A program made the translations under genes and the position numbers. Below are positions 20,688 through 36,661 of a stretch of 36,661 bases of DNA, in pieces (the first letter of the stretch is position 1; each line of letters begins with the position of its first letter). The stretch is from Escherichia phage HK75, in sequence record HM173637; one strand, 5' to 3'. The notes below the pieces were generated by a model. That model had not been told where the DNA came from and made no database searches. It was given only the letters and a program-made list of their open reading frames with translations.

Positions 20688-20895
20688 AGTAAACCGCCGC
20701 CCATCGTATGCAAGAACGTGCTGCAGCTGGCTGGCGAACTTTCGATAGTGCGAGTATTGAATGATTTCCAGCCGTTACCGATTTTACTATGTTTTCAGTA
20801 GAACATTTAGACAAAACTGAGACACACAAGGCTTTGCACTGGATTGCAAGACTTTGTGCTCTTCTGTGGATGTGTGTCTACATGTTTGAAGATTG

Positions 20896-20911
20896 TTGTG
20901 CCGTATTTGTG
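20896..20911 (+). repeat. Integrase arm-type site candidate (P arm)
   Basis: TTGTGCCGTATTTGTG, identical 16-mer repeated at 21113-21128 on the other side of the att core. Confidence 0.5.
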
Positions 20912-21019
20912 ACATACACATGGCAACATCATGCATCAACTTTCTGTTTGTGCCATCAACTATAGATTAGTGAATGCGGTTAATGCTTGCTAAACAGATA
21001 GTTATGATTGGTGCTACAG

Positions 21020-21065
21020 ATTCGTAATGCGAAGGTCGTAGGTTCGACTCCTATTATCGGCACCA
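21020..21065 (+). other. attP core: 3' 46 nt of a tRNA-Thr(CGU) gene (anticodon loop to CCA end), thrW-like
   Basis: ATTCGTAATGCGAAGGTCGTAGGTTCGACTCCTATTATCGGCACCA: anticodon loop with CGT, T-arm GTAGG-TTCGACT-CCTAT, acceptor 3' strand plus ACCA; no matching 5' half upstream. Confidence 0.75.
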
Positions 21066-21079
21066 TTTAAATCAATAAG

Positions 21080-22240: not shown

Positions 22241-22464
22241 GCTTTAACCTCCTGCACATCAACCGCATTCACCGCGCTATTGTGTCTTACAGACTTAAGC
22301 GCCGCAATGCAGTCTGACTTGCAAATGCGATATGGGCTTTTAGGTTTATCTGGATTTATCTTTGCGGCCTGAAGTCGTCCACTTCGTATCCACTGCGTGA
22401 TAGTGCCTTTGTCTACCTTCAGATACGATGCTGCCTCTTCACGAGTGAAGATTTCTTCTTCCAC
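22117..22464 (-). CDS. xis: Excisionase / HTH DNA-binding protein
   Basis: 115 aa, N-terminal excisionase-type HTH (EEAASYLKVDKGTITQWIRSGRL), 3' end overlaps int. Confidence 0.55.
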   Translation of the reverse strand: MEEEIFTREEAASYLKVDKGTITQWIRSGRLQAAKINPDKPKSPYRICKSDCIAALKSVRHNSAVNAVDVQEVKACQSNYAVARGTVISSRQMDQELDALLKHRTKGKRKNFTIV

Positions 22465-22651
22465 CTGGAATCTCCATTTATTGAGTTGGTATTATTGCGG
22501 TAGGTCTGGATATCATTGAGCAATGAACAGGCCTCATCGAGTGTGAAGCGGTGTTATTTCATGGTTAGTCCTTGCGTAGCTCGCTGATTCTTCTGTAAGT
22601 CTCTGGTGCTTTGCTATCTCACGCAGTGCCTGATAGTCAATCTTGCTCATG

Positions 22652-22951
22652 TCACATCACCCTGAATCCGTTGCATTTACGTAAGAAATCGCAGATATAG
22701 CCCTTCATTTTTTCATGCCAATCTCGATCATTCCCATTGCACCAACCATCAGGTGGAGTCCAGTTTTCTATCAGAGCAGCCATTTTCTTTGCTTTCGCCG
22801 GAGTAGCTGTTGCGGTATCGCAGTAATGACGAGTGTCAACCAACGAATCCATACCATCGATATCAAGTACGCAAAACCATGTGTGATTCGGAATTCCTAC
22901 AGGTGGTATTTGTTGCCCACGTCGACGTTTATCAATAAGATATACACTCAC
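22652..22951 (-). CDS. Hypothetical protein (Cys-rich, 99 aa)
   Basis: ORF with GTG start overlapping the upstream stop (GTGA), early-left operon. Confidence 0.4.
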   Translation of the reverse strand: MSVYLIDKRRRGQQIPPVGIPNHTWFCVLDIDGMDSLVDTRHYCDTATATPAKAKKMAALIENWTPPDGWCNGNDRDWHEKMKGYICDFLRKCNGFRVM

Positions 22952-23448
22952 TGGTTGCCTCCTTTGCGAAGCTGGTCGGCGAACAAACGTACACTAGACG
23001 CTTCACTGCGTAGAAACTTAACGGCATAATCAAAACCACCTCGTTCTGCGTCGTCTGCTCCGTTGTCGAGGTTATCTGCGTACATCTCTACCCCCTGCGC
23101 CCGTACTTCAGCCAGGAAAGCATCGGTGGCTGGGGTTTCCGTGAAGTTGTCCTCCCAACCGTAGTACTCCTGACGACAGAAGTTATTAAATTCCTTCTCC
23201 GACTGTTTAAGCGCCGCATTCTCCGCCGCCAGCTCAGCGCACTTGCCCTCAAGGTTATCAATCGTGATTCCAGCAGAGCGACACTCCCGCAACGCCGTTT
23301 CTAGTTTTGATTCAAGTTCACCGAACTTACGGGCAAGATATTCAGCGTTTGTTTCGTTAACTTTTAAATCTCGTGGGAAGCATTTACCTTTCAGAAAACC
23401 ATCCATCTCAATTAGTGACATTTGTTTCATTTCTTCCCACTCCGCCAC
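22948..23448 (-). CDS. Hypothetical protein (166 aa, coiled-coil N-terminus, acidic C-terminus)
   Basis: Long ORF in the early-left operon; start uncertain (GTG 23448 or ATG 23430/23421). Confidence 0.45.
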
Positions 23449-23591
23449 ATTGCATTCAGATATTTGTTGTCATTAACAGAGCCGAAACTATTTCTCTTAA
23501 GCAATTCCTCTCTCGATGGCATTGGCTTTACGCGTTGGCGAATAATCATTTCTGCCGGAAGAATGCCGGGATTGTATGCAAGTCCTCTCAT
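23427..23591 (-). CDS. Hypothetical small protein (54 aa)
   Basis: ATG at 23591 preceded by GAGGAA RBS; lies downstream of the 23602-23895 ORF. Confidence 0.3.
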
Positions 23592-23601
23592 GGTAAATTC
23601 C

Positions 23602-23895
23602 TCAGTCATTACTGATAGCGCCATAGCGTGAGCGGTAATTACGCAGGCGCGGGTCAATTTCAGGGAAGTGGGTATATGTGGCTTTGCGGAATGGTCGGAT
23701 TGATGTCTGGTAAATTCGATCGCGTTCTTCTTTCTCTGCAAGCCATATACAATGGCGAAATTCCTTTTCCTCTTTCGTTTCCTGCGGTAGAGACATTATT
23801 CGATCGTAGTTTTTTCTGAATTTATCCAGCACCTCCGATACGGAATTGCCGGAACAGCGGCGCGCGTCATCCGCACCATACAAAGGCGCTGGCAT
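23602..23895 (-). CDS. Hypothetical protein (97 aa)
   Basis: ATG at 23895 with strong AGGAG RBS, immediately downstream of ssb. Confidence 0.5.
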
Positions 23896-23908
23896 GTTTT
23901 TCTCCTGA

Positions 23909-24415
23909 TTAAATTGCGTGAATAGCGTGACGAGGGAAGGGGAGAGTTACTGGTGCAAAGGGTATATCGTCGTCAAAATCCATCGGAGGTTCGTTGTGTT
24001 GTGCTGGTGATGATTGCTGCTGTGGCTTCTGTGATTGCCTGCTGGCTGCTTGTTGTTTGCTGTCGCCAATGCCGCCAAGCATTTGCATCACGCCATTAAT
24101 TCCGACATGAACCTCGGTTGTGTAACGGTCTTGCCCTGACTGGTCTTTCCACTTTCTGGTTCTCAGCATTCCCTCGAAATAAATCTGATCACCTTTTTTC
24201 ACATACTGCCCAACGACCTCAGCCAGTTTCCCGGATACAGCAACACGATGCCATTCAGTCAATTCCTTTTGCTCGCCAGTATTTTTATCTCGCCATTGTT
24301 CTGACGTGGCTATTGTCAGGTTAGCGAACGCTGTTCCTGATGGTGAGTATCGAACTTCCGGGTCTTGTCCTACCCGACCAAGGATAATCACCTTATTTAC
24401 GCCTCTGCTTGCCAT
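23909..24415 (-). CDS. ssb: Single-stranded DNA-binding protein with C-terminal extension
   Basis: OB-fold N-terminus ([17 protein letters not shown]...), Gly/Gln-rich linker, MDFDDDIPF acidic tip followed by 15 extra residues. Confidence 0.85.
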
Positions 24416-25123
24416 TTATGCCGCCTGTTTTAGTTCGTTAACTCTGATGTTCATTACCTGAACGCATTTAGCCTGCGCCTCCTCGTTGCCAGCCATTAAT
24501 TGCCAGTCACGCTGATAACGCTCGATGAGTTTTTTCTTGTCAGTTTCTGTTGACGCATAATCGCTGAAGTCTTTCAGTATTTGTTCGCAGTCAACCGATG
24601 GAGATTTCTGGTTGGTATTTTCTGGTGATGGTTTGTTATCTGATGCTGGGATTGCCCATCCCGGCAGCGATGGAGGAAGCCAGTAAAATCCTGTTCCATC
24701 CTTCAGTTTTGCCCTGTGCCACCCCTGCTTTTTATCGAGAGATGTTTGTGCGAAACCTTCCTCAAGGTTATACAGATACCGACCGATTCCCCACTGAACG
24801 GCAGCGCGCTTCATTGCACCGGAACGACCACCTTTGACGGCTTCTACCTGCGTGTTTTCAGCAGCATCCCATTTGGTTACCCATTCGGAATCAATCTTTA
24901 TTGATATGCCGCATTCAACGCCGCCGTTGTTGGGAATATCGCGGTATTCATTGCGCCATCCTGCTTTGCCGCAAACATCGTCCAGGCGTTTCATGATTGC
25001 CCGGTTCGTGACATAAGCCAGCACCATAGCCCACACTTTGTCATCGCGTGTTTTACCGCTTTGCTGTATTCGCCATTCGATATCTTCAGGGCTGAATGGC
25101 TCATCGAATTTATTCAAATCCAT
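24416..25123 (-). CDS. Single-strand annealing recombinase (Rad52/Erf/Sak superfamily, tentative)
   Basis: 235 aa directly upstream of ssb; GAMKRAAVQWGIGRYLY segment resembling the Rad52-type annealing motif; GAGGTGA RBS. Confidence 0.5.
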   Translation of the reverse strand: MDLNKFDEPFSPEDIEWRIQQSGKTRDDKVWAMVLAYVTNRAIMKRLDDVCGKAGWRNEYRDIPNNGGVECGISIKIDSEWVTKWDAAENTQVEAVKGGRSGAMKRAAVQWGIGRYLYNLEEGFAQTSLDKKQGWHRAKLKDGTGFYWLPPSLPGWAIPASDNKPSPENTNQKSPSVDCEQILKDFSDYASTETDKKKLIERYQRDWQLMAGNEEAQAKCVQVMNIRVNELKQAA

Positions 25124-25131
25124 AATTCACC

Positions 25132-25302
25132 TCAGAATGGACACGGCCCAAGGAAATAACGCTGATTTAATACTTCAGTCTTTGCCGCATTTAAAAATAC
25201 GCGAACACCTTCACGATCTCCCTTCTGGCGATACATTAACGCCTGCTGCGTGTACATGCGTCTCTGTAACTTGCTCTCCTTCACTGTGGTTGCAAGTGAC
25301 AT
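25132..25302 (-). CDS. Hypothetical small basic protein (56 aa)
   Basis: ATG at 25302 with excellent AAGGAGA RBS; overlaps 25211-25381 ORF in another frame. Confidence 0.35.
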   Translation of the reverse strand: MSLATTVKESKLQRRMYTQQALMYRQKGDREGVRVFLNAAKTEVLNQRYFLGPCPF

Positions 25303-25381
25303 GAATATCTCCTTCGTTACCGATTAATTCTTTCATCTGACGAATGAATTCTTCGTCTGACCAGTTATCTGTAAAACTCAT
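25211..25381 (-). CDS. Hypothetical small acidic protein (56 aa), alternative to or overlapping the 25132-25302 ORF
   Basis: ATG overlaps the stop of the upstream Kil-position ORF (ATGA); weak RBS. Confidence 0.2.
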   Translation of the reverse strand: MSFTDNWSDEEFIRQMKELIGNEGDIHVTCNHSEGEQVTETHVHAAGVNVSPEGRS

Positions 25382-25530
25382 TTCCTGCGATACCACGGAA
25401 GGTTGATAGCTGATTTCATCGCTTTATTTGCTTCAAGCCACATTTTGGAATCACCAATAAATCTGGCTATTACTGCTTTGTTCTGTGCTGCACGAAGCAT
25501 CTGGTGATTGATGGCTATTTCATTGCGCAT
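25378..25530 (-). CDS. Small protein at the Kil position (50 aa)
   Basis: ATG at 25530 with GAGGT RBS, immediately after the cIII-like gene, shorter than the ORF-track cutoff. Confidence 0.3.
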   Translation of the reverse strand: MRNEIAINHQMLRAAQNKAVIARFIGDSKMWLEANKAMKSAINLPWYRRK

Positions 25531-25640
25531 AATAAGACCTCAACTCTTTTCCACCCGTCACGTAATTTACGGGTGATTCGTTCAAGTAAAGATTCGGAAG
25601 GGCAGCCAGCAACAGGCCACCCTGCAATGGCATATTGCAT
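25515..25640 (-). CDS. cIII: cIII-like FtsH inhibitor
   Basis: MQYAIAGWPVAGCPSESLLERITRKLRDGWKR matches the recalled lambda cIII N-terminal/central region; 41 aa from the internal ATG of the 25515-25742 ORF. Confidence 0.6.
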   Translation of the reverse strand: MQYAIAGWPVAGCPSESLLERITRKLRDGWKRVEVLLCAMK

Positions 25641-25703
25641 GGTGTGCTCCTTATTTATACATAACGAAAAACGCCTCTCGTGAAGCGTTATTGGTATGCA
25701 TAT

Positions 25704-25727
25704 AAAAAGGCCCTCACACTGGAGGGC
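25704..25727 (-). terminator. Intrinsic terminator (tL1-like) between the N-like gene and cIII
   Basis: On the minus strand GCCCTC-cagtgt-GAGGGC followed by CTTTTTATAT. Confidence 0.4.
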
Positions 25728-25869
25728 AAAGAAGACTTCCAATAATCAGAACAAGTCGGCTCCTGTTTAGTTACGAGCGACATTGCTCCGTGTATTCACT
25801 CGTTGGAATGAATACACAGTGCAGTGTTTATTCTGTTGTTTGCGTGAAAATGAAATCTGCCTAAGCGGG

Positions 25870-26208
25870 TTATGACCACTTTTTGTTTGGGTTTCGTTGG
25901 TGAGCGTGATTAACAACTCTGTGCATTACATCCTCATATTTTTCATCTTCAATTTTTTCGACATCGCGAGGAAATGGTGTTGCTAATGCTTTGTCAACTT
26001 TGTCCATTGGGTCTTCATTAATCTTATATTCCGGACCGTCATCTATAGCATTAAATCCAGGTGTTACACCGTTTTCTAATGCATATGCCATTCTCTTTTC
26101 CCATCTCGCTATTCTCCTCCTGTCTTGAGATGTAAGGCATCTATCAGATACTTTTCTGTTTTGTCCGCGGTCAGGATTAACATAAATAGTCTTTTTCACC
26201 ATAAGCAT
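25870..26208 (-). CDS. Putative N-like antitermination protein
   Basis: First gene leftward of the repressor; basic Arg-rich segment SQDRRRIARWEKR near the N-terminus; ORF-track start at 26214 is TTG, first ATG at 26208. Confidence 0.3.
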   Translation of the reverse strand: MLMVKKTIYVNPDRGQNRKVSDRCLTSQDRRRIARWEKRMAYALENGVTPGFNAIDDGPEYKINEDPMDKVDKALATPFPRDVEKIEDEKYEDVMHRVVNHAHQRNPNKKWS

Positions 26209-26566
26209 ACTCAATAAGCACCGTACGGTAGTTTACTGTACAATTTTATTTTTTGGACTGCATGTATTTTGTTTCCTAATGGGTTTGAATCTTTGCAATA
26301 AATACTTCTATTTTTTCGAACGACTTCTATATCAAAAAGCTGCTTTGCTTTTTGTGACTAAAAGCAAAAAAGCCTTCTCGCTAATGAGCAGCATTGCCGT
26401 TCATCCTGAACCCGCCGCGCTCCCGACGCATGGTTTAAAGACGCGCCGTTCGTCTATGGGCTTATGATGTACCTAAAGTTCATTAATGTAAAGTACCAGT
26501 AGTACATTTTATGGGTATAAAAAGCTCACTACATCATAAGTTAGTGAACTTTAAGGAAATTTATTT

Positions 26567-27274
26567 TTATCCGAATCGCTTGTAATCGATTGACTGCCTA
26601 ATGAGGACTTTGGCTAGAATGTGAAGTTGCTCTTCTTCACCTTCTTCTATGTACCATCGATCATAAGCGGCATTGTCAGAGATGACGGCAAGCCTGTTCT
26701 TTTGCATTTGCAGGCGCTTAACGTGCATTGTTTTCCCGTATACAAACACATAAATGCCATCGCCATCAAAACAGGTTATGGATACATCAACAAAGATCTC
26801 ATCTCCCGGATTGATGGTTCCCTCCATGCTGTCACCGCGAACCGTGATGACTTTTACGCTTTCCTGTGGCCTTCCATTAAATAAAATTCTTGCCTGCTCG
26901 GTCGTATATTCAATTGCTCTTATCTTTTCTATAAATTCATTGGAAACCATGGTTCCTGGCCCGGCGCTCGCCTGAACATCCAATACATCAACACGATAAG
27001 AATCATTTGATCTTGATAGATGATTTACCGTGATACCGTCATCATCAGCATAGCCATGCAGATATGCCGCAGTGGTTCCCAGCACCGAAGCCAGAGATTC
27101 CATCTTGTCTTTTCTTGGTATTGACTCCCCGTTGAACCATTTACTAATGGCTTTTGGTGTGACCTTAAGCCTGACAGCTAAATCAGCCTGCCTACCATGC
27201 AAAGGTAATCCCGCTTTATCACAGGTCAGCGCAAGCCTCTGCGAGAAAGTTTCACGCTCTTTCTGTTGAACCAT
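26567..27274 (-). CDS. cI: cI-like prophage repressor (HTH plus S24 LexA-type peptidase domain)
   Basis: 235 aa from ATG 27274; N-terminal HTH; C-terminal GDSM Ser and VKRL Lys dyad; start codon lies inside an operator repeat (leaderless-type). Confidence 0.85.
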   Translation of the reverse strand: MVQQKERETFSQRLALTCDKAGLPLHGRQADLAVRLKVTPKAISKWFNGESIPRKDKMESLASVLGTTAAYLHGYADDDGITVNHLSRSNDSYRVDVLDVQASAGPGTMVSNEFIEKIRAIEYTTEQARILFNGRPQESVKVITVRGDSMEGTINPGDEIFVDVSITCFDGDGIYVFVYGKTMHVKRLQMQKNRLAVISDNAAYDRWYIEEGEEEQLHILAKVLIRQSIDYKRFG

Positions 27275-27283
27275 AAGTTCAAC
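27267..27283. promoter_or_regulatory. Operator candidate OR-a
   Basis: TGAACCATAAGTTCAAC containing palindrome TGAAC-N5-GTTCA; identical core repeated at 27324-27340. Confidence 0.55.
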
Positions 27284-27294
27284 TATATTAGGTA

Positions 27295-27323
27295 TTGACT
27301 GTACTATCAGTTCCGTCATAATA
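27295..27323 (+). promoter_or_regulatory. pR-like promoter for cro
   Basis: TTGACT (-35), 17-bp spacer, ATAATA (-10); next operator copy overlaps the predicted start site. Confidence 0.55.
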
Positions 27324-27340
27324 TGAACCATAAGTTCACC
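27324..27340. promoter_or_regulatory. Operator candidate OR-b
   Basis: TGAACCATAAGTTCACC, second copy of the 15-bp palindromic core. Confidence 0.55.
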
Positions 27341-27353
27341 ACAGGAGAGAAGC

Positions 27354-27575
27354 ATGAACGAAGTTACGTTTGCAGACGTTATCAAATCCGTTCGAGTTTC
27401 TGTTGTGGCTGAGGTTTGTGGCCTGACTCCAAAAGCCGTTTACAAGTGGCTGGAGAAAGGGGGATTGCCGCGTACAGAATTCACTGATGAAACTGACTAC
27501 GCGAAAAAAATCTCTCGTGCATCTGGCGGCAAATTCTCAACCGCACTGATTAAGCGAGTCGGAAAAGCAGCATAA
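27354..27575 (+). CDS. cro: Cro-like repressor
   Basis: 73 aa, divergent from cI, AGGAG RBS, HTH segment AEVCGLTPKAVYKWL. Confidence 0.7.
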   Translation: MNEVTFADVIKSVRVSVVAEVCGLTPKAVYKWLEKGGLPRTEFTDETDYAKKISRASGGKFSTALIKRVGKAA

Positions 27576-27704
27576 GCACGTTTTTAAAATGTACTTTTAG
27601 TTCCGAACGGCCCGGTATATGGTCGGGTGCCCGGCGTGGTCAAGGATGACTGTCAATGGTGCACGATAAAAACCCAAATTATTTACCTATGGAGATAGTA
27701 AGAA

Positions 27705-28001
27705 ATGGCACAAGCAAGCTACAGCAAGCCAACACAGCGAGAAATTGATCGCGCTGAAACTGATTTACTCATCAACCTGTCAACGCTTACCCAGCGCGGT
27801 CTGGCAAAGATGATTGGCTGTCATGAATCGAAGATAAGCAGAACGGACTGGAGATTTATTGCTTCGGTCTTGTGTGCTTTCGGAATGGCATCAGACATCA
27901 GTCCGATTAGCAGGGCTTTTAAGTATGCATTGGATGGAATCGCAAAGAAAAAATCCCCGGCTGCCACCGAGGATTTTAAGCAAATTGATATGCAATTCTG
28001 A
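27705..28001 (+). CDS. cII: cII-like transcriptional activator
   Basis: 98 aa; C-terminal KKSPAATEDFKQIDMQF close to recalled lambda cII C-terminus; HTH LAKMIGCHESKISR. Confidence 0.75.
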   Translation: MAQASYSKPTQREIDRAETDLLINLSTLTQRGLAKMIGCHESKISRTDWRFIASVLCAFGMASDISPISRAFKYALDGIAKKKSPAATEDFKQIDMQF

Positions 28002-28033
28002 GGGAATTACTGGATCAATCCACAGGAGTAATT

Positions 28034-28195
28034 ATGACAAAACGTCGTAAGAAATACCAGGAAAAAGAAGAGATTCGACACCCTGATTCACCTGAGGGAT
28101 TAGTGGTAGCCGCAGCAAATAACAGGGCGTTCGCAGAGCGCCTTGTTGGTGTTTACAGACTAGCCAAAGCAGGAGTGAAACATGGGCGTCGTTAA
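28034..28195 (+). CDS. Small basic protein (53 aa), unknown
   Basis: ATG with GGAG RBS (28025-28028); Lys/Arg-rich N-terminus; below the ORF-track size cutoff. Confidence 0.3.
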   Translation: MTKRRKKYQEKEEIRHPDSPEGLVVAAANNRAFAERLVGVYRLAKAGVKHGRR

Positions 28196-28244
28196 GTTAG
28201 CTGATTACAGGCATAACCCTGTACAACATCAGGAGGCATCCAGT

Positions 28245-29072
28245 ATGGGGTATGTCTCTATACACCGCCAGTTTATGGACAGCAGGCTCTATAAGGACTC
28301 TCAGGCAGTACATCTTTGGCTTCACTTAATTCTCAAGGCTAATCACGAATCTACTGTCGTCAATACGGATATCGGGCCGATAACTGTTGATCGCGGTCAG
28401 ATGATAACTGGACGCCCGTCGCTGGTCAGAGAAACATTCATCCCCGACAACAAAGTTCGGAGCTTATTACGGACTTTTGAGTCGAAAGGGATGCTTAATA
28501 TTTGCTCGATGGGGAAGAAATTTAGCCTGTTTACAATCGTTAAATATGACGATTTTCAGGCAAAAAATTGTCCAACGGTTGTCCAACGGTTGTCCAACGC
28601 AAACACCAGTAATGGCGCGGCTCTCAGCGGAGATTGTCCAACGGTTGTCCAACGGTTGTCCATAAACAATAATATAAATAATATCTCTAATACTGACGTA
28701 TTAGAGAGTGCCACAGCAGACAAAAAGTCTGACAAGAAAAAACCTTCCGTTAGCTGTCAGGATGTTGTCGATGCTTACCACGAAATCCTTCCTGAAGCGC
28801 CAAAAATCCGCGCACTGAATGACAAGCGTAAAAACCAGATCCGAACGTTCTGGCGCAAAGCCGGAGTGATAACCCGCCAGCTTGACGGGCATGGGTTCAC
28901 GATGCAGGACTGGAGAAATTATTTGAGCTACGTAGGCGAAAATTGTCGATGGATGTTCGAAGAGCGTCCAAACCATCAACGCGGAACTGTCTGGCACAAA
29001 AAGGGATTTGATTTCCTGCTTAACGACAATACCTACCTGAAAGTTCGTGAGGGTGAACACGATGACCGATAA
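28245..29072 (+). CDS. Replication initiator (lambda O / P22 gp18-like) containing the origin iterons
   Basis: ATG 28245 with AGGAGG RBS; two clusters of three 11-bp iterons inside the coding region followed by an AT-rich stretch. Confidence 0.7.
   Translation: MGYVSIHRQFMDSRLYKDSQAVHLWLHLILKANHESTVVNTDIGPITVDRGQMITGRPSLVRETFIPDNKVRSLLRTFESKGMLNICSMGKKFSLFTIVKYDDFQAKNCPTVVQRLSNANTSNGAALSGDCPTVVQRLSINNNINNISNTDVLESATADKKSDKKKPSVSCQDVVDAYHEILPEAPKIRALNDKRKNQIRTFWRKAGVITRQLDGHGFTMQDWRNYLSYVGENCRWMFEERPNHQRGTVWHKKGFDFLLNDNTYLKVREGEHDDR
28568..28600 (+). repeat. ori iteron cluster 1 (3 x TTGTCCAACGG)
   Basis: Three tandem 11-bp direct repeats. Confidence 0.8.
28634..28666 (+). repeat. ori iteron cluster 2 (2 x TTGTCCAACGG plus degenerate TTGTCCATAAA) followed by AT-rich region
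   Basis: Tandem 11-bp direct repeats 33 bp after cluster 1; AT-rich 28667-28700. Confidence 0.8.
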
Positions 29073-30498
29073 TTTTTATGCGCCGCCCCATAGCATCGAG
29101 GCAGAGCAGGCGGTGATTGGTGGATTGCTTCTGGATGATGACAGCAGTGAGCGCGTCCAGAAAGTTCTGGCGATGCTGAAGCCTGATTCATTTTACAGCC
29201 GACCACACAAAATCCTTTTCGAAGAAATAACCAGAATGCACCGGGAGCAAAAGCCAGTAGATGGCCTGACGCTTTTCGATGAACTGGAGCGTAAATCGTT
29301 AACGGCGTCTGTTGGCGGTTTTGCTTATATCGCTGAGATCGCAAAGAGCACGCCAAGCGCAGCAAACATCGTTGCCTATGCAATGCAGGTTCGTGAAACC
29401 GCAATGGAACGCTACGCCATCAACCGCATGACTGAAGCGACGGAATTGCTCTATTCCCGCAACGGAATGACTGCAACGCAGAAGTACGAAGCTATTCAGT
29501 CGATTTTCACGCAACTGACAGACCATGCAAAAACAGGATCGCGTCGCGGCCTTCGCTCATTTGGTGAGGTCATGGAAGACTGGGTTAGCGACCTTGAGAA
29601 GCGATTTGACCCGTCAGGCGAACAACGAGGAATGAGCACAGGGATCCCATCGCTGGACAGGATGCTGTCACCGAAAGGTCTGGTGAAAGGCTCTCTGTTT
29701 GTCATTGGTGCTCGCCCTAAGATGGGGAAAACGACGCTATACAGCCAGATGGCAATCAACTGCGCAGTGCATGAGAAAAAGCCCGCTCTTATGTTCAGCC
29801 TTGAAATGCCAGGTGACCAGATACTGGAAAAACTGGTAGGGCAGAAGTCTGGTGTTAACCCGAATATTTTTTACCTTCCGGCGACAAATGACGCTGATGA
29901 CGGCTATCAGGGTGATTACGATGGTGACTTCAACAGGGCGATCGAAACAGCCAATCGCTTGAGTGAAATCGACCTGCTTTACATCGACGACACGCCGGGA
30001 TTATCTCTGGCTCAAATCGTCAGCGAAAGTCGTCGAATCAAGCGAGAAAAAGGATGTGTTGGCATGATTCTGGTCGATTACCTGACACTAATGACCGCTG
30101 AAAAGGCCGATCGCAACGACCTTGCTTACGGCATGATCACCAAAGGACTGAAGAACCTTGCCAAAGAGCTTGATTGCGTTGTTGTGCTTCTGACACAGCT
30201 TAACCGCGCACTGGAAAGCCGAACCAATAAACGCCCATTACCAAGTGACTCACGAGATACAGGGCAGATTGAACAGGATTGCGATTATTGGGTGGGGATC
30301 CATCGTGAAGGCGCTTTTGATGACAGTGTTCCACCTGGTGAAACTGAACTAATCCTTCGTCTCAATCGTCATGGCAATACCGGCACGGTGTATTGCATTC
30401 AGGCAAATGGCGCTATTTATGACACCGACCAACAGTCTGCTGAAATGCGCCGCCGTGAACGCGAGGAACCGCAGTCCAAGAAGAAAGGAGGATTCTGA
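29062..30498 (+). CDS. Replicative DNA helicase (DnaB family)
   Basis: About 479 aa; Walker A GARPKMGKT; DnaB N-terminal IEAEQAVIGGLL; start overlaps the initiator gene end. Confidence 0.85.
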   Translation: MTDNFYAPPHSIEAEQAVIGGLLLDDDSSERVQKVLAMLKPDSFYSRPHKILFEEITRMHREQKPVDGLTLFDELERKSLTASVGGFAYIAEIAKSTPSAANIVAYAMQVRETAMERYAINRMTEATELLYSRNGMTATQKYEAIQSIFTQLTDHAKTGSRRGLRSFGEVMEDWVSDLEKRFDPSGEQRGMSTGIPSLDRMLSPKGLVKGSLFVIGARPKMGKTTLYSQMAINCAVHEKKPALMFSLEMPGDQILEKLVGQKSGVNPNIFYLPATNDADDGYQGDYDGDFNRAIETANRLSEIDLLYIDDTPGLSLAQIVSESRRIKREKGCVGMILVDYLTLMTAEKADRNDLAYGMITKGLKNLAKELDCVVVLLTQLNRALESRTNKRPLPSDSRDTGQIEQDCDYWVGIHREGAFDDSVPPGETELILRLNRHGNTGTVYCIQANGAIYDTDQQSAEMRRREREEPQSKKKGGF

Positions 30499-30573
30499 TG
30501 ACCATCTACATCACTGAGCTAATAACAGGCCTGCTGGTAATCGCAGGCCTTTTTATTTGGGGGAGAGTAAATC

Positions 30574-30780
30574 GTGGCTGAGTTGATTTTCTCTGCATTG
30601 AGGATTCTCGGTGCTATGTGGATGGTGGCGACGTTCATTGTGGTTGCCAGCAGTTTTGTCCGGTTGGTAGGCGAAGGTAAAGACCTGGTTGGTGTGCTTT
30701 TCGGTAGCATTTTTCTGTGGGTGATTATCGGTGTTATGCCTGTCGCTGTAGCAAAAATGGCGTGGCGTTTTGTTAGTTGA
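30574..30780 (+). CDS. Small two-helix membrane protein, unknown
   Basis: 68 aa hydrophobic ORF (GTG start) after the helicase gene; a 27-codon hydrophobic ORF (30498-30581) precedes it. Confidence 0.3.
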   Translation: MAELIFSALRILGAMWMVATFIVVASSFVRLVGEGKDLVGVLFGSIFLWVIIGVMPVAVAKMAWRFVS

Positions 30781-30787
30781 GGTGACA

Positions 30788-31198
30788 ATGAAGCAAACAA
30801 TCTTCCTCCGAACTAAGCAACAACAGCAAGCTGCAATAAATGCCATCCTCGCAACACCACTCGATAAAGACAAGCCAGTCACCATCCGCATTACTGACTA
30901 CAAGCGCAACCTTGACCAGAACGCAAAATTTCACGTGATGCTGGCGGATATCGCTCGTCAGGTTCAATGGTGCGGCAAATGGTTAAAACCGGAACAATGG
31001 AAGGTTTTGTTGATCAGCGGTCATGCAGTGGCTACAAAGCAGGAAGCTGATGTTTTGCCCGGCCTTGAAGGCGAATACGTCAACATTCGCGAAAGCAGCG
31101 CGCAGATGAGCGTGAAGCGCATGGCAAGCCTGATTGAGTACACGACAGCATGGGCTATTGGTCAGGGTGTCAGATTTACCGACAGGAGGTACGAATGA
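30788..31198 (+). CDS. ninB: NinB recombination protein
   Basis: 136 aa from ATG 30788 (GAGGTGA RBS); core [33 protein letters not shown] resembles recalled lambda NinB. Confidence 0.8.
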
Positions 31199-31377
31199 GA
31201 CGACAACGACGAAGTTTCACCGACACCATCTGCGAAAACTGCAAATACCTTCCAACCAAACGCACCAGAAATAAACGCAAGCCAATCCCAAAAGAATCTG
31301 ACGTAAAAACCTTCAACTACACGGCTCACCTGTGGGATATCCGGTGGCTTAGAGAACGTGCGAGGAATACAAGGTGA
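31195..31377 (+). CDS. ninE: NinE-like protein
   Basis: 60 aa starting [18 protein letters not shown]; AGGAGG RBS; ATGA overlap with the ninB stop. Confidence 0.55.
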
Positions 31378-31544
31378 TTGACCCAAATCGAAGTTACGAA
31401 CAAGAAAGCGTCGAGCGGGCTTTAACGTGCGCTAACTGCGGTCAGAAGCTGCATGTGCTGGAAGTTCACGTGTGTGAGCACTGCTGCGCAGAACTGATGA
31501 GCGATCCGAATAGCTCAATGTACGAGGAAGAAGACGATGAGTGA
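31374..31544 (+). CDS. ninF: NinF-like zinc-ribbon protein
   Basis: 56 aa with CxxC...CxxC; GTG start overlapping the ninE stop; not in ORF track (<60 aa). Confidence 0.45.
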
Positions 31545-32259
31545 GTTAATGAATGGCAATGCCATCAAAATGACAAGCATTGAAATCGCTGAGTTGGTGG
31601 GTAAGCGTCATGACAATGTGAAACGTACCATCGAAACGCTGGCTAAAAATGGTGTTATCCGGCTTCCTCAAATTGAGGTTTCCGAAAGAATCAATAACTT
31701 AGGATTCAATGTTCAGTACGAGCATTACGTATTCGAAGGCGAACAAGGTAAGCGAGATAGTATTGTTGTTGTAGCCCAGTTGTCGCCGGAATTCACCGCT
31801 CGCCTTGTTGACCGCTGGCGAGAACTTGAAGACGCTGCGGTTAATATCCCCAAAACGCTACCAGAAGCGTTGCGCCTTGCTGCTGATCTTGCTGAGCAGA
31901 AAATGCAACTGGAAAACCAGCTCGCAATTGCCGCACCTAAAGTTGAGTTTGCCGATCGCGTTGGCGAGGCCAGTGGAATTTTGATTGGAAACTTTGCAAA
32001 GGTTGTTGGAATTGGTCCAAACAAACTGTTTGCGTGGATGCGCGATCACAAAATCCTTATTGCTTCAGGTTCCCGGCGCAATGTGCCAATGCAGGAATAT
32101 ATGGATCGCGGCTATTTCACAGTGAAAGAAACAGCGGTCAACACAAATCACGGAATACAGATATCGTTCACCACAAAAATCACCGGACGTGGCCAACAGT
32201 GGCTGACCAGAAAGCTGCTCGATAACGGAATGCTGAAAGTAACAGGGGAGGCTGCTTAA
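31537..32259 (+). CDS. Rha-family regulator / antirepressor (Rha N-domain plus ANT/KilAC C-domain)
   Basis: N-terminus MTSIEIAELVGKRHDNVKRTI typical of Rha; C-terminal FAKVVGIGPNKLFAWMRDHKIL typical of the ANT domain. Confidence 0.7.
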   Translation: MSELMNGNAIKMTSIEIAELVGKRHDNVKRTIETLAKNGVIRLPQIEVSERINNLGFNVQYEHYVFEGEQGKRDSIVVVAQLSPEFTARLVDRWRELEDAAVNIPKTLPEALRLAADLAEQKMQLENQLAIAAPKVEFADRVGEASGILIGNFAKVVGIGPNKLFAWMRDHKILIASGSRRNVPMQEYMDRGYFTVKETAVNTNHGIQISFTTKITGRGQQWLTRKLLDNGMLKVTGEAA

Positions 32260-32549
32260 TGGCTAACCTACGCAAAGAAGCACGCGGCAGAGAATGCCAG
32301 GTACGTATTTACGGCGTATGCAATGGCAACCCTGAAACTACAGTTCTGGCACATTACCGGATGGCTGGAATTTGCGGAACGGGAATGAAGCCTGACGACC
32401 TGATCGGCGCATGGGCTTGTAGCGCGTGTCACGATGAAATCGACCGACGCACCCATAACCTCGACAACAAAGACGCCAGACTTTACCACCTCGAAGGCGT
32501 GATCAGGACGCAGGCGATACTGCTGAAGGAGGGAAAGATTAAGCCATGA
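32259..32549 (+). CDS. DUF1364-type protein (YbcO-like)
   Basis: 96 aa, RGRECQVRIYGVCNGNPETTVLAH...ACSACHDEIDRRTH resembles recalled E. coli DLP12 YbcO; directly upstream of rusA as in DLP12. Confidence 0.65.
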   Translation: MANLRKEARGRECQVRIYGVCNGNPETTVLAHYRMAGICGTGMKPDDLIGAWACSACHDEIDRRTHNLDNKDARLYHLEGVIRTQAILLKEGKIKP

Positions 32550-32908
32550 ACGAATATCAGTTTGTGCTTCCATACCCGCCGTCGGTGAATACCTACTGGC
32601 GAAGACGAGGAAGCCAATACTACATCAGCGATAAAGGCCAGAAATACCGAAAAGACGTTCAGCAAATCATCCGCCAACTTAAGTTAGACATTTTCACCAA
32701 ATCACGACTCCGCATCAAAGTCATCGCAGACGTTCCAGACTCCCGCCGCCGCGACCTCGATAACATCCTGAAAGGTTTACTCGACTCACTTATCCACGCC
32801 GGATTTGCGGAAGACGACGAGCAATTCGATGACATTCGCGTAATTCGTGGTGTGAAAGTACCAGGCGGACGGCTTGGAATAAAAATCACCGAACTGGAGA
32901 ACGCATGA
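32546..32908 (+). CDS. rusA: RusA Holliday junction resolvase
   Basis: 120 aa, conserved DSRRRDLDNILKGLLDSL and C-terminal GGRLGIKITE. Confidence 0.85.
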   Translation: MNEYQFVLPYPPSVNTYWRRRGSQYYISDKGQKYRKDVQQIIRQLKLDIFTKSRLRIKVIADVPDSRRRDLDNILKGLLDSLIHAGFAEDDEQFDDIRVIRGVKVPGGRLGIKITELENA

Positions 32909-33093
32909 ACGCCACAATTCAAACGATACCAGAGCTTCTTATCCAGACGCGAGGCAATCAGACCGAAGTGGCGAGGATGCTTTCCTGCGCAAGAGGAACA
33001 GTGCTCAAGTACAACCGAGACAGCAAAGGCGAGCGTCACGTAATAGTTAACGGCGTCCTGATGGTCAAACAGGGCAAAAGGGGAAGACGATGA
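32905..33093 (+). CDS. ninH: NinH-like small DNA-binding protein
   Basis: 62 aa, GNQTEVARMLSCARGTVLKY resembles recalled lambda NinH. Confidence 0.55.
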   Translation: MNATIQTIPELLIQTRGNQTEVARMLSCARGTVLKYNRDSKGERHVIVNGVLMVKQGKRGRR

Positions 33094-33608
33094 GCATAAG
33101 AGAGCTAAACCTCACCAAAGAACAGCACGATTGGCTGAATTGCTGGCTTGAACTGTGGGGCGCATGGGTTTATTCAGGTCGTCTGGAAAAGCGCATGAGC
33201 AGCGTAATAGCGAAGTTCATGGAGAGCGTAGAGCCGGGAAGAGTTATGACAAGGCCAATGTGCAATGATGATGATGGAATGTTGATTTCTCAGGTCGTCG
33301 ATTCCGTCATGTACATTGACAAGAAAGCCTTCGGCATCCTCCTCAGCTACTACGCTCATGGTTCATCTAAGCGAGCAATTGCATCCTACTATCACGCGAC
33401 TGCAAAGCCACGCAAGATGTGTGGACGTGGTGGCGAGGGATGGAGAAAACCTTCACTGGCAACCTGTAGAAACGAAATTGACGACATCCTGAAAGCGTCG
33501 TTATTTGTTTTGTACCAGCCAATGCAAAATGCTTTCAAAATGCGTAAACGTGTTGAGAAAGTTAAGCATGTTGCTGTTAAAAGCCTTGACATGCAATTAT
33601 CCATTTAG
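33090..33608 (+). CDS. Putative late-gene antiterminator (Q-like)
   Basis: 172 aa, last gene before a strong promoter-hairpin-T-run unit and the lysis cassette; several Cys; position-based call. Confidence 0.4.
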   Translation: MSIRELNLTKEQHDWLNCWLELWGAWVYSGRLEKRMSSVIAKFMESVEPGRVMTRPMCNDDDGMLISQVVDSVMYIDKKAFGILLSYYAHGSSKRAIASYYHATAKPRKMCGRGGEGWRKPSLATCRNEIDDILKASLFVLYQPMQNAFKMRKRVEKVKHVAVKSLDMQLSI

Positions 33609-33615
33609 CCATAAT
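33586..33615 (+). promoter_or_regulatory. pR'-like late promoter
   Basis: TTGACA (33586-33591), 18-bp spacer, CATAAT (33610-33615). Confidence 0.45.
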
Positions 33616-33625
33616 TAGAAGGTAA

Positions 33626-33667
33626 GCTGCCGTTAGTGACTCTTAAGTTGCAACGGTGGCTTTTTTT
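33626..33667 (+). terminator. tR'-like terminator shortly downstream of the late promoter
   Basis: GC-containing inverted repeat (GCCGTT...AACGGTGGC) followed by TTTTTTTGTTTG. Confidence 0.4.
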
Positions 33668-33745
33668 GTTTGCACAACAGGTAAGAGCATTGAACCCGCA
33701 GACCTCGCGGAATTGGTGAAAGGTGCCGCGCAGTGCTCTTATCGA

Positions 33746-33872
33746 TGTGGTGAAGCTCAATGGCGAGCTAACAGATAGGCGACAGTGAAAATACTAGTCA
33801 TGTAGCTGACCGCCGCGCGTACTGCAATCGGCAGCGCACCGATGGAAGCCGGTTCGATTCCGGCCGCCACAA
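33746..33872 (+). pseudogene. tRNA-like element / disrupted tRNA (all four arms present, ~59-nt insertion between D-arm and anticodon arm)
   Basis: Acceptor TGTGGTG pairs 7/7 with CGCCACA; D-arm GCTC-AATGGC-GAGC; anticodon-like arm ATCGG-CAGCGCA-CCGAT; T-arm GCCGG-TTCGATT-CCGGC; lacks U8 and U33. Confidence 0.3.
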
Positions 33873-34117
33873 CCCAAACTGAGCCGTAGCCACTGGCTAT
33901 CCTGAATTCATCAGTGATAGTTACGCTGCGGCCTTCTACACATGACCTTCGTGAAAGCGGGTGGCAAGAGGCTGCGCTAACAACCTCCTGCCGTTTTGCC
34001 AGTGCATATCGGTCACGAACAAATCTGATTACTAAACACAGTAACCTGGATTTGTTCTATCAGTAATCGACCTTATTCCTAATTAAATAGAGCAAATCCC
34101 CTTATTGGGGGTAAGAC

Positions 34118-34441
34118 ATGAAGATGCCAGAAAAAAATGACCTGTTAGCCGCCATTCTCGCGGCAAAGGAACAAGGCATCGGGGCAATCCTTGCGTTTGC
34201 AATGGCGTACCTTCGCGGCAGATATAATGGCGGTGCGTTTACAAAAACAGTAATCGACGCAACGATGTGCGCCATTATCGCCTGGTTCATTCGTGACCTT
34301 CTCGGCTTCGCCGGACTAAGTAGCAATCTCGCTTATATAACGAGCGTGTTTATCGGCTACATCGGTACTGACTCGATTGGTTCGCTTATCAAACGCTTCG
34401 CTGCTAAAAAAGCCGGAGTAGAAGATGGTGGAAATCAATAA
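34118..34441 (+). CDS. S: Class I holin (lambda S-like, dual-start)
   Basis: 107 aa beginning MKMPEK (Met1/Met3 dual-start motif), three TM segments, near-identical to recalled lambda S. Confidence 0.9.
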
Positions 34442-34901
34442 TCAACGTAAGGCGTTCCTCGATATGCTGGCATGGTCAGAGGGAACTGATAACGGACGTC
34501 AGAAAACCAGAAATCATGGTTATGACGTCATTGTAGGAGGAGAGCTATTCACTGATTACTCCGATCACCCTCGCAAACTTGTCACGCTAAACCCCAAACT
34601 CAAATCAACAGCCGCCGGACGCTACCAGCTTCTTTCCCGTTGGTGGGATGCCTACCGTAAGCAGCTTGGCCTGAAAGACTTCTCTCCGAAAAGCCAGGAC
34701 GCTGTGGCATTGCAGCAGATTAAGGAGCGTGGCGCTTTGCCGATGATTGATCGTGGTGATATTCGTCAGGCAATTGACCGTTGCAGCAATATCTGGGCTT
34801 CACTGCCGGGCGCTGGTTATGGTCAGTTCGAGCATAAGGCTGACAGCCTGATTGCAAAATTCAAAGAGGCTGGCGGAACGGTCAGAGAGATTGAGGTATG
34901 A
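34425..34901 (+). CDS. R: Endolysin (lambda R-like lytic transglycosylase)
   Basis: 158 aa, near-identical to recalled lambda R. Confidence 0.9.
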
Positions 34902-35335
34902 GCAGAGTCACCGCGATTATCTCCGCTCTGGTTATCTGCATCATCGTCTGCCTGTCATGGGCGGTTAATCATTACCGTGATAACGCCATCTCCTACAAAG
35001 AGCAGCGCGATAAAGCCACATCCATCATCGCTGATATGCAGAAGCGTCAACGTGATGTAGCAGAACTCGACGCCAGATACACAAAGGAGCTTGCTGATGC
35101 TAACGCGACTATCGAAAGTCTCCGTGCTGATGTTTCTGCTGGTCGTAAGCGCCTGCAAGTCGCCGCCACCTGTGCAAAGTCAACGACCGGAGCCAGCGGC
35201 ATGGGCGATGGAGAAAGCCCAAGACTTACAGCAGATGCTGAACTCAATTATTACCGTCTCCGAAGTGGAATCGACAAGATAACCGCGCAGGTTAACTACC
35301 TGCAGGAATACATCAGGACGCAATGCCTGAAATAA
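34898..35335 (+). CDS. Rz: i-spanin Rz
   Basis: 145 aa, N-terminal TM helix, coiled-coil periplasmic domain, follows R. Confidence 0.8.
35091..35282 (+). CDS. Rz1: o-spanin Rz1 lipoprotein embedded in Rz (+1 frame)
   Basis: Signal peptide with lipobox ending in Cys (LVVSAC), Pro-rich mature region, entirely within Rz. Confidence 0.7.
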
Positions 35336-35367
35336 TTTTTTTGCAAATCACAAAGTCAATTTAATGA

Positions 35368-35392
35368 GCCTCGCGAAAAGCGGGGCTTTTTT
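35368..35392 (+). terminator. Intrinsic terminator after the lysis cassette
   Basis: GCCTCGC-gaaaa-GCGGGGC followed by TTTTTT. Confidence 0.55.
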
Positions 35393-35543
35393 ATGTCCGC
35401 AGTAAACCGCGCATTCTCGTGCGCATATCAACCAAGAGCTTTTCGGGATATGAGACAGAGACAGGACGGTGGCTTACATCGTGCCGCTCTTGGGCTGTCC
35501 ATGTCTGCGAGAACTGGCTCATATCACCAAAAAGGTAAATACG

Positions 35544-35840
35544 ATGTCCAATATCATCCCGATTGATTTCGAAGGCCATCCCATGCGTTTTTCTGACGAT
35601 GGCTGGTTTGACGCGACTGCGGCAGCTGACAAGTTCAACAAGGAGCCGGCTCAGTGGCTTAGGCTTCCTGAGACTGTCCGTTACATCGAGGCGTTAAAGA
35701 GTAGATATGGGAATATCACATATGTAAAAACCAGCCGCGCTCGCAAAGACCGTGGTGGCGGACTGATGGAAAGACATCGGTTATTGCAGAGGTCATTCAA
35801 TGAGTGGTCTCGACAATGGCTTATACCCTACACGGGATAA
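35544..35840 (+). CDS. KilA-N domain protein (tentative)
   Basis: 98 aa from ATG 35544; IIPIDFEGHPMRF...DGWFDATAAADKFNKEPAQWLRL pattern resembles KilA-N/APSES-type domains. Confidence 0.4.
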   Translation: MSNIIPIDFEGHPMRFSDDGWFDATAAADKFNKEPAQWLRLPETVRYIEALKSRYGNITYVKTSRARKDRGGGLMERHRLLQRSFNEWSRQWLIPYTG

Positions 35841-35977
35841 CTTAACTGATATCCCTTTTAACGGATAAACGGAGCCAACAATGGCAGAGATTATTCTCAT
35901 GACTGAAGAACAGAAATTCCAGTTAGAGATTTACAAACTGGTCATGAACCAGAACGCCGCCGTGCATGGAGACTGGC

Positions 35978-36319
35978 ATGAACAAAGAGCCCCGCGTATA
36001 TGGCAGCCGATGGGATAAGGCCCGTCTGCGTTTTCTCCAGCAGCACCCACTGTGTGTGATGTGCGAGCAGCAGGGGCGCATAACACCAGCAACGGTGGTC
36101 GACCATATCGTGCCCCACAAACTGAAAGATGCGCTTAAGTCAGGTAACCCTCTGGCCATATCGAAAGCACAGCTCCTGTTCTGGAGTAAAGAGAACTGGC
36201 AGCCACTGTGCAAAGCGCATCATGACTCAACGAAACAGAGAATGGAGAAGAGCGGCGCGGTAATCGGTTGTGATGCCAACGGCTACCCGCTCGATCCTGC
36301 GTCTCACTGGAGCACGTAA
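35978..36319 (+). CDS. HNH endonuclease (terminase-associated type)
   Basis: 113 aa from ATG 35978 (GGAG RBS); CxxC, DHIVPH and CKAHH HNH motifs; sits just upstream of the cos/terminase region in genome order. Confidence 0.75.
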   Translation: MNKEPRVYGSRWDKARLRFLQQHPLCVMCEQQGRITPATVVDHIVPHKLKDALKSGNPLAISKAQLLFWSKENWQPLCKAHHDSTKQRMEKSGAVIGCDANGYPLDPASHWST

Positions 36320-36522
36320 TGAAAGACCTCATCATTGAATACCGAGACGGTAAGTTTGTTCAGCTGGCGATTGATGGCGTGGAGATGAAGCACGTAACAT
36401 CTATCCAGTTCTCCCACACCGCAGGCGAGGACGTACCGACATTGACCGTGTCAGGACATGTGTGGTCCGAGTATGGGGAAGGCGATCACAAACTCGAACA
36501 GGTAGACAAACATTCGGCATAG
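36319..36522 (+). CDS. Hypothetical small protein
   Basis: 67-aa ORF coupled (ATGA overlap) to the HNH gene. Confidence 0.35.
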   Translation: MKDLIIEYRDGKFVQLAIDGVEMKHVTSIQFSHTAGEDVPTLTVSGHVWSEYGEGDHKLEQVDKHSA

Positions 36523-36606
36523 CGCGGCGGCGGCAAGTCGATTATCTATCATGTGAAATCATTTCAAATGCAACGATATCAAATGAGAATGAATCGCATT
36601 CAGGGC

Positions 36607-36619
36607 GGGGGGGGGGGGG
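36607..36619. repeat. Homopolymeric G13 tract in the putative cos region
   Basis: 13 consecutive G between the last ORF and the window end; flanked by GCGGCGGCGG (36523-36535) and its inverted copy CCGCCGCC (36651-36658). Confidence 0.6.
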
Positions 36620-36661
36620 ATCAAATCTTCAAAATCTTTGCCCCAAATGACCGCCGCCAAA

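Follow-up and report, generated by a model that had tools for sequence, protein, structure and literature searches.

The segment at positions 33586-33667 of Escherichia phage HK75 is, judging from its sequence, very probably the late-gene control unit of a lambdoid phage with a Q antiterminator of the phage 21 family. The sequence analysed was record HM173637 (36,661 nt), the whole stretch of which is called the window here, and the segment reads TTGACA TGCAATTATCCATTTAGC CATAAT TAGAAGG TAAGCTGCCGTTAGTGACTCTTAAGTTGCAACGGTGGC TTTTTTT. This reading is carried by the anatomy of the sequence, by the homology of the Q protein to the structurally solved Q21, by the identity of the pause element and the terminator with those of phage 21, and by an architecture kept throughout the family. 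A Q-dependent late promoter followed by a terminator had been proposed for this place in a first-pass annotation, and the homology to the phage 21 and Sf6 units supports such an arrangement.

The HK75 late switch is an ordinary one of the lambda-like type described previously, and is near-identical to the unit of phage 21, where it has been characterised by experiment. Since the unit is also annotated by homology in Shigella phage Sf6 and a variant Q-binding element has been discussed for Salmonella phage L, it is already known. The exact 82-bp sequence is present in 16 of the 80 closest IMG/VR loci, and over 20000-36661 the window as a whole is similar to HK022/mEpX2-like coliphages. By itself the late-switch finding is of very little significance and confirms a textbook regulatory unit. 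It allows a confident annotation of the HK75 late switch, from Q and its binding element through the pause element and tR' to the beginning of the late operon, and as a natural variant in specificity of Q21, whose structure is solved, it is of modest value. What may matter more than the switch is a by-product of the analysis, a tRNA-like RNA in the late leader, which shows strong covariation and occurs also in unrelated virulent Salmonella phages.

The late promoter

The promoter TTGACA-18-CATAAT that the first-pass annotation had placed across the 3' end of a 172-aa gene is present at 33586-33615, with a match of 11/12 to the sigma-70 consensus. Its -35 hexamer TTGACA (33586-33591, plus strand) lies inside the 3' end of Q and is the same as the annotated -35 of phage 21, and its -10 hexamer CATAAT (33610-33615, plus strand) follows after a spacer of 18 nt. 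By homology, the transcription start is predicted at the plus-strand G at 33622, which is the seventh base past the -10 hexamer and lies directly 5' of TAAGCT, like the start annotated in the phage 21 record OL657228. In the whole 36.7-kb window, scanned on both strands, this promoter is the sole sigma-70 match of at least 11/12. Dinucleotide shuffles yielded 0.45 such matches per window, with at least one in 34% of the shuffles, so that the promoter match, taken by itself, does not decide the matter statistically. The consensus scan gave no promoter-like site between tR' and the holin and lysis genes.

Record OL657228 is informative for each of these elements: with literature references, it annotates the -35, QBEu ATTGAGCA, QBEd AATGAGCA, the -10, the start and the sigma-dependent pause element, and further a terminator from +2 to +50 followed by tRNA-Asn and tRNA-Thr. 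Phage 21 (structures 6P18/6P19 and 6JNX) has in common with HK75 the Q family, the -35 TTGACA, the TAAGCT and the whole terminator with its T-run, and the distance of 40 nt from start to T-run and the register of the tandem 8-bp repeat are also the same. The two phages differ in the repeat, which is ATTGAGCA/AATGAGCA in phage 21 and AATTATCC/ATTTAGCC in HK75, in the -10 (AACACT in phage 21, CATAAT in HK75), in the first six transcribed bases, and in the spacer, which is 17 nt in phage 21 and 18 nt in HK75, so that the HK75 -35 is one base further from the repeat.

The Q gene and its product

The Q gene occupies 33090-33608 on the plus strand; its ATG overlaps the stop codon of ninH as ATGA, and its TAG stop lies at 33606-33608. 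YbcO, RusA and NinH are its upstream neighbours and a lambda-S-type holin follows downstream. The 172-aa product had been called the late antiterminator in the first-pass annotation, and the searches agree: it matches the Pfam family Phage_antitermQ (PF06530) with E = 1.3e-25, and against the PDB it gives an ungapped alignment to residues 1-162 of phage 21 Q (6JNX_P, 6P18_P and related entries) with E ~1e-90, at an identity to Q21 (6P18/6JNX) of 85-86%. The fold of the Q21 family is sigma-region-4-like with a helix-turn[loop]-helix (Pfam PF06530). Residues 1-102 are almost identical to Q21, residues 103-172 are diverged, and a C-terminal extension of ten residues carries the HK75 gene into the promoter. 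In the Q21 structures the DNA contacts are made by S93, K94, H95, R113, A124, T125, R127 and R128 (PMC6606751); HK75 Q carries the substitutions H95R and R128N at such DNA-contacting positions, and the 111-119 loop is also changed. The closest phage Q proteins, with an identity of 97-99%, are those of Sf6, CUS-3, HK629, L, ST64T-like Salmonella phages and others, and within the phage 21 Q family the HK75 protein belongs to the Sf6/L subtype.

On the minus strand within the Q gene (33383-33415) there is a CII-type site TTGCGTGGCTTTGC (TTGCN6TTGC) at 33415-33402, together with a -10-like TAGGAT at 33388-33383. The phage 21 record places its paQ antisense promoter and CII site at these very codons, and this minus-strand site is probably a CII-activated anti-Q promoter.

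The predicted Q-binding element

The search for a qut-like element overlapping the promoter, which the first-pass annotation had suggested, led to a tandem 8-bp repeat between -35 and -10, whose sequence is of the L/Sf6 type and not of the phage 21 type. The predicted upstream subsite QBEu is AATTATCC at 33595-33602 (plus strand, -27 to -20), in the register of the phage 21 QBEu, and the predicted downstream subsite QBEd is ATTTAGCC at 33603-33610 (plus strand, -19 to -12), in the register of the phage 21 QBEd. The latter includes the Q stop codon and, as in phage 21, ends on the base with which the -10 hexamer begins. According to the Q21 structures, two protomers sit between -35 and -10 on two 8-bp subsites in direct repeat, and in the phage 21 element the C:G pairs at -21 and -13 are functionally essential (10.1101/651190; PMC6606751). 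The HK75 tandem repeat has C at both places, -21 (33601) and -13 (33609).

The window does not contain the Q-binding sequence of phage 21; compared with it, 4 of 8 positions differ in the HK75 QBEu and 3 of 8 in the QBEd. This repeat of a non-phage-21 type marks a specificity subtype, and the membership of the window in the phage-21-type Q cassettes still holds. From register, repetition and co-occurrence, we infer that AATTATCC/ATTTAGCC is the Q-binding site here. For phage L, AATTATCC/AtTTAgCC has been proposed as the likely Q-binding element, and 3 of 6 DNA-contacting Q residues differ there (PMC8022706). PMC9836094 makes no mention of Q sites. The L repeat AATTATCC/ATTTAGCC is identical to that of HK75. 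Sf6 (AF547987) has essentially the unit of HK75, with an annotated late promoter, a qut site and a tR' described as "similar to phage 21", and differs from HK75 by one base in QBEu (AATTAGCC) and one T of the T-run. The late-control elements of Sf6 and L are themselves homology predictions.

The co-occurrence was examined in 160 IMG/VR loci with a Q gene of one or the other subtype. The type of Q and the type of repeat agree in all 160, the Sf6/L-type Q being found with the L-type repeat in 81/81 loci and the Q21-type with the phage 21 repeat in 79/79. As for the other parts, the initial transcribed bases, the terminator type (phage 21-like or HK629-like) and the post-terminator module were each seen with both Q types. 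Among these loci, recombination shuffles everything 3' of the -10, and a separation of the Q C-terminus from the repeat was never seen. The perfect agreement may be due to linkage alone, because the Q C-terminus and the repeat are less than 200 bp apart.

A distant comparison was made with six family members of 87% to 46% identity, namely phage 21 and phages of Enterobacter, Hafnia, Edwardsiella, Vibrio and Klebsiella. All six have a tandem 8-bp repeat between -35 and -10, for example GTTGAGCC/ATTGAGCC and ATGAACAA/ATGAGCAA, and all six have a -10-like hexamer (TAAGCT, TATGCT, TACGCT or TAGGTT) a few bases past the -10. In five of them a hairpin with a T-run can be read at about 40-70 nt from the start; in the Vibrio sequence it was not identified. 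Across seven Q21-family cassettes (including L004 and L294-L298), R128 goes with G and N128 with T at subsite base 4, and H95 goes with A and R95 with C at subsite base 8, the last one. This is suggestive of what may be a simple recognition code between Q residues 95/128 and subsite bases 8/4, as read from few independent lineages. With two DNA-contact residues and the cognate 8-bp repeats changing together, the system offers a clean swap experiment on how Q reads DNA.

The pause element, the terminator and the predicted short RNA

Directly after the predicted start lies the sigma-dependent pause element, the -10-like TAAGCTG (33623-33629, plus strand, +2 to +8; hexamer TAAGCT at 33623-33628), which is the same as the annotated phage 21 element and at which sigma-dependent pausing would be expected in HK75 too. 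Hexamers of the same -10-like kind, TATGCT, TACGCT and TAGGTT, stand at the equivalent position in unrelated leaders.

The inverted repeat and T-run that had been noted after the promoter form the late terminator tR' (33624-33667, plus strand), with a hairpin at 33624-33662 and seven T at 33661-33667. When the RNA is folded from 33622, the stem has 17 bp and a single bulge, the loop has 4 nt and the energy is -20.2 kcal/mol; shuffled sequences gave a mean of -9.0 +/- 2.5 kcal/mol (z = -4.4), and 0 of 200 were as stable. A simple terminator scan missed this hairpin. From TAAGCT through the T-run there is base-for-base identity with phage 21, where the terminator is annotated from PMID 1704887. 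Part of the pause element falls within the 5' arm of this terminator. All the elements named in the first-pass annotation are thus found at the positions it gave. It had put the terminator within about 40 nt of the promoter; the T-run begins 45 nt past the end of the -10 and 40 nt from the homology-derived start at 33622. With the T-run starting at +40, the terminated RNA is predicted to be 40-46 nt, as in phage 21. When Rfam was searched with E up to 10 over 33560-34130, the terminator gave a match to ctRNA_p42d, which was rejected as a generic hairpin with a U-tract (19.5 bits against a gathering threshold of 50, E = 0.16).

By analogy, this 40-46-nt RNA, which would be made constitutively in lysogens, might in addition act in trans as a small RNA, like StxS or as suspected for the lambda 6S RNA, and we consider this unlikely. 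In Stx phages the RNA from the late promoter to the terminator is an Hfq-binding small RNA (PMC7547250), and the same article cites work in which short terminated RNAs from the late promoter are reported for phages 21, phi80, 82 and P22. The 3' end in HK75, a hairpin with a U-tract, is the usual Hfq-binding end, and the RNA sequence is almost invariant in the 160 loci with two Q types. However, the functions of the pause element and the terminator account equally well for this invariance. Apart from 2 unpaired nt at the 5' end, the RNA is nearly all terminator stem, leaving little space for a seed, and StxS comes from a far longer leader of 258 nt (PMC7547250).

Proposed mechanism of the switch

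Returning to the unit as a Q-controlled late switch, we propose a mechanism on the model of the loading and the exit-channel nozzle described for the Q21 family (10.1101/651190; PMC6606751). Host sigma-70 RNA polymerase would initiate at about 33622, the late promoter being constitutive, and sigma region 2 would then re-bind the -10-like TAAGCT (+2 to +7) and make the polymerase pause. Without Q, the polymerase would resume and terminate at the hairpin and U7, releasing the 40-46-nt RNA. When Q has accumulated, two protomers would occupy the tandem 8-bp repeat AATTATCC/ATTTAGCC and dock onto the paused polymerase, and one of them would serve as a nozzle at the RNA-exit channel that blocks hairpin formation. 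With the hairpin blocked, the polymerase would pass tR' and terminators further on and would transcribe the leader RNA, the lysis genes and the remaining late operon. Q-dependent read-through of tR' in HK75 is a prediction by homology. Given the overlap of the pause element with the terminator 5' arm, Q would have to engage ahead of the synthesis of the 3' arm, in agreement with the nozzle model.

The late operon begins with an untranslated late leader of 450 nt between tR' and the holin gene (33668-34117, plus strand). It is followed, all on the plus strand, by holin S (34118-34441; Pfam PF05106, E = 1.4e-29) and, from the list of open reading frames, by endolysin R (34425-34901), Rz (34898-35335) and Rz1 (35091-35282), which is embedded in Rz. 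After Rz/Rz1, and still inside the late operon, there is a strong intrinsic-terminator-like site (35366-35398, plus strand) with a 9-bp stem containing 6 G-C pairs and then a T-rich TTTTATGTCC. Late transcription would have to pass this site, and the 450-nt leader, the lysis genes and the further terminator-like site are together consistent with a need for processive antitermination. The open reading frames after this site include an HNH-like 117-aa protein at 35966-36319.

The modular late leader

The lambdoid late leader appears as a system of slots, which hold tRNAs or a hammerhead-like ribozyme in some relatives and an unannotated tRNA-like RNA in HK75. Two stem-closed slots can be recognized on the plus strand, the first at 33680-33742 with the closing stem GGTAAGAGCATT...AGTGCTCTTATC and the second at about 33745-33880 with the closing stem GTTGTGGTGAA...CGCCACAAYCCA; over 33668-33885 the conserved closing stems read CACAACAGGTAAGAGCATT...AGTGCTCTTWYCGTTGTG and then GTTGTGGTGAA...CCACAAC. 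Phages with the same Q and late promoter have unrelated inserts in these slots (L021, L023, L038, L044, L061, L069 and others), and both Q subtypes carry both kinds of downstream module. At the position of the slots, phages 21 and Sf6 have tRNA-Asn and tRNA-Thr, and L also carries tRNA genes there. In these phages the tRNA genes follow tR', directly so in Sf6 and L; HK75 is without them and has other RNA modules instead. One version of the leader module is presumably carried by phage lambda as well.

Parts of the leader region are annotated in the CUS-3 record as "boundary sequences" bsq3 and bsq4. Outside the window, in the first leader slot of the relative L061 (2104-2150; also in L026), there is a sequence like a type I hammerhead ribozyme. 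All conserved core nucleotides are present in the L061 sequence (CUGACGAG...GAAAC...GUC), and it scores 24.7 bits with RF00163 (E = 0.001, gathering threshold 34). Within the late-control and leader region of the window, Rfam gave no match at gathering thresholds. A 40-aa open reading frame at 33656-33778 ("polyubiquitin-A" in ON470589) was rejected as non-coding, as it spans the terminator and the structured leader; in ON470589.1 and ON470594.1 the "polyubiquitin-A" CDS covers the equivalent of window positions ~33656-33900 and looks like an annotation artefact.

A tRNA-like RNA in the second slot

At 33745-33874 on the plus strand lies an unannotated structured RNA of about 130 nt with a tRNA-like architecture, recognized by covariation. 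The structure was drawn by hand on an alignment of 61 distinct copies. It has an 8-bp acceptor stem, a D arm and a canonical T arm (GGTTCGATTCC); the position of the variable arm is taken by a 5-bp hairpin with an invariant loop, and that of the anticodon arm by a long arm of two helices with a loop of 18-20 nt. Over the 61 copies 95.8% of the cells are paired, compared with 27-46% when the 3' partners are slid, and 22 of the 40 pairs show compensatory changes; none of 500 shuffles reaches any of the covariation measures. The minimum free energy fold of the region alone is not significant (z = -1.5 to -1.8), and the inner pairing that this fold gives to the long arm is not kept in the copy of Pantoea phage PdC23; the structure rests on covariation.

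The loop of the long arm contains a self-complementary hexamer in 61/61 copies (ACUAGU, UCUAGA, GCUAGC, UCGCGA, UCCGGA or ACCGGU). This suggests dimerisation via a kissing loop, or an RNase P-type processing signal for the late leader. A pseudoknot of AUAG, 5' of the long arm, with CUA of the loop was tried and rejected, for the loop becomes CGCG or CCGG while AUAG stays constant.

The element is distinct from a genuine tRNA, which has a cloverleaf with a 5-bp anticodon stem and a 7-nt loop. ARAGORN found no tRNA or tmRNA on the plus strand, even with introns allowed or thresholds lowered, and a minus-strand pseudo-tRNA-Arg called at lowered thresholds was dismissed as implausible. The tRNA models of Rfam 15 gave no match over 33560-34130 with E up to 10, where fragments of tmRNA models, at the T loop, were the only hits besides that of ctRNA_p42d to the terminator. 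A 58-nt "tRNA-Ser" is called inside the element in PQ186186 and looks like an annotation artefact. A shallow literature search found no description of the element, and a preprint on Pas small RNA concerns something else.

As to its distribution, virulent Salmonella siphophages (Skatevirus and Akiravirus) have an unannotated intergenic element with which it shares 94-96% identity. Their copies have a promoter-like site and a terminator-like hairpin of their own and, in Akira, adjoin tRNA-Met. Pantoea phage PdC23 carries a diverged copy, and so does a P22-like phage, where it lies in the leader that precedes an N-like gene. A scan with a 23-nt motif found at least 120 IMG/VR contigs and only 3 species-representative genomes.

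In HK75 the synthesis of the tRNA-like RNA would be Q-dependent. It is tentatively proposed, at somewhat less than an even chance for the two parts taken together, that the switch gates an undescribed family of tRNA-like RNAs besides mRNA and that Q residues 95 and 128 embody a recognition code. The copies in Skatevirus and Akiravirus, where such a leader RNA module has its own promoter and terminator without Q, would also agree with a different reading, according to which the HK75 promoter mainly makes the structured RNAs of the leader (33668-34117) by leaky termination and without a need for Q, while a different promoter serves the late genes. This we regard as very unlikely, for the terminator is a strong one (17-bp stem and U7), the stretch from the terminator to the holin gene has no promoter-like site, and the lysis genes lie downstream on the same strand, an arrangement shared with phages 21, Sf6, L and lambda, whose lysis genes depend on Q. 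Likewise very unlikely is the explanation that the hairpin and T-run merely end the early rightward operon after Q and that the promoter hexamers are a chance match with no role in late expression: an 11/12 match in 34% of shuffled windows and the place of the terminator directly 3' of the last early gene are in its favour, but the entire unit is homologous to the experimentally characterised phage 21 late promoter and terminator, the hexamers, tandem repeat and -10-like pause element stay in place even in Q cassettes whose proteins are as little as 46% identical, and no other promoter-like site precedes the lysis genes.

Comparison with lambda and Stx phages

The Q-controlled late switch of HK75 follows the same logic as the late promoter, 6S RNA and tR' of lambda. 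Between the two systems, the lambda leader is 194 nt long as against the predicted 40-46 nt in HK75, and the pause element of HK75, unlike that of lambda, overlaps the 5' arm of the terminator. In lambda, a constitutive promoter after Q contains the Q site and is followed by a sigma-dependent proximal pause, a short terminated RNA and read-through (10.1101/651190; PMC7547250). Between lambda Q and Q21 no similarity in sequence can be detected (PMC6606751). The Stx phages likewise produce a short constitutive RNA from an antiterminated late promoter, StxS, but there the late promoter is 258 nt from tR' and RNase E yields a 74-nt Hfq-binding small RNA (PMC7547250); no StxS-like function is evident for the 40-46-nt RNA of HK75.

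Elsewhere in the window, a full-length match to the Rfam family Lambda_thermo, the cIII thermoregulator, was found at 25595-25653 on the minus strand (88.5 bits, E = 1.7e-20), which confirms a lambda-like early-left region.
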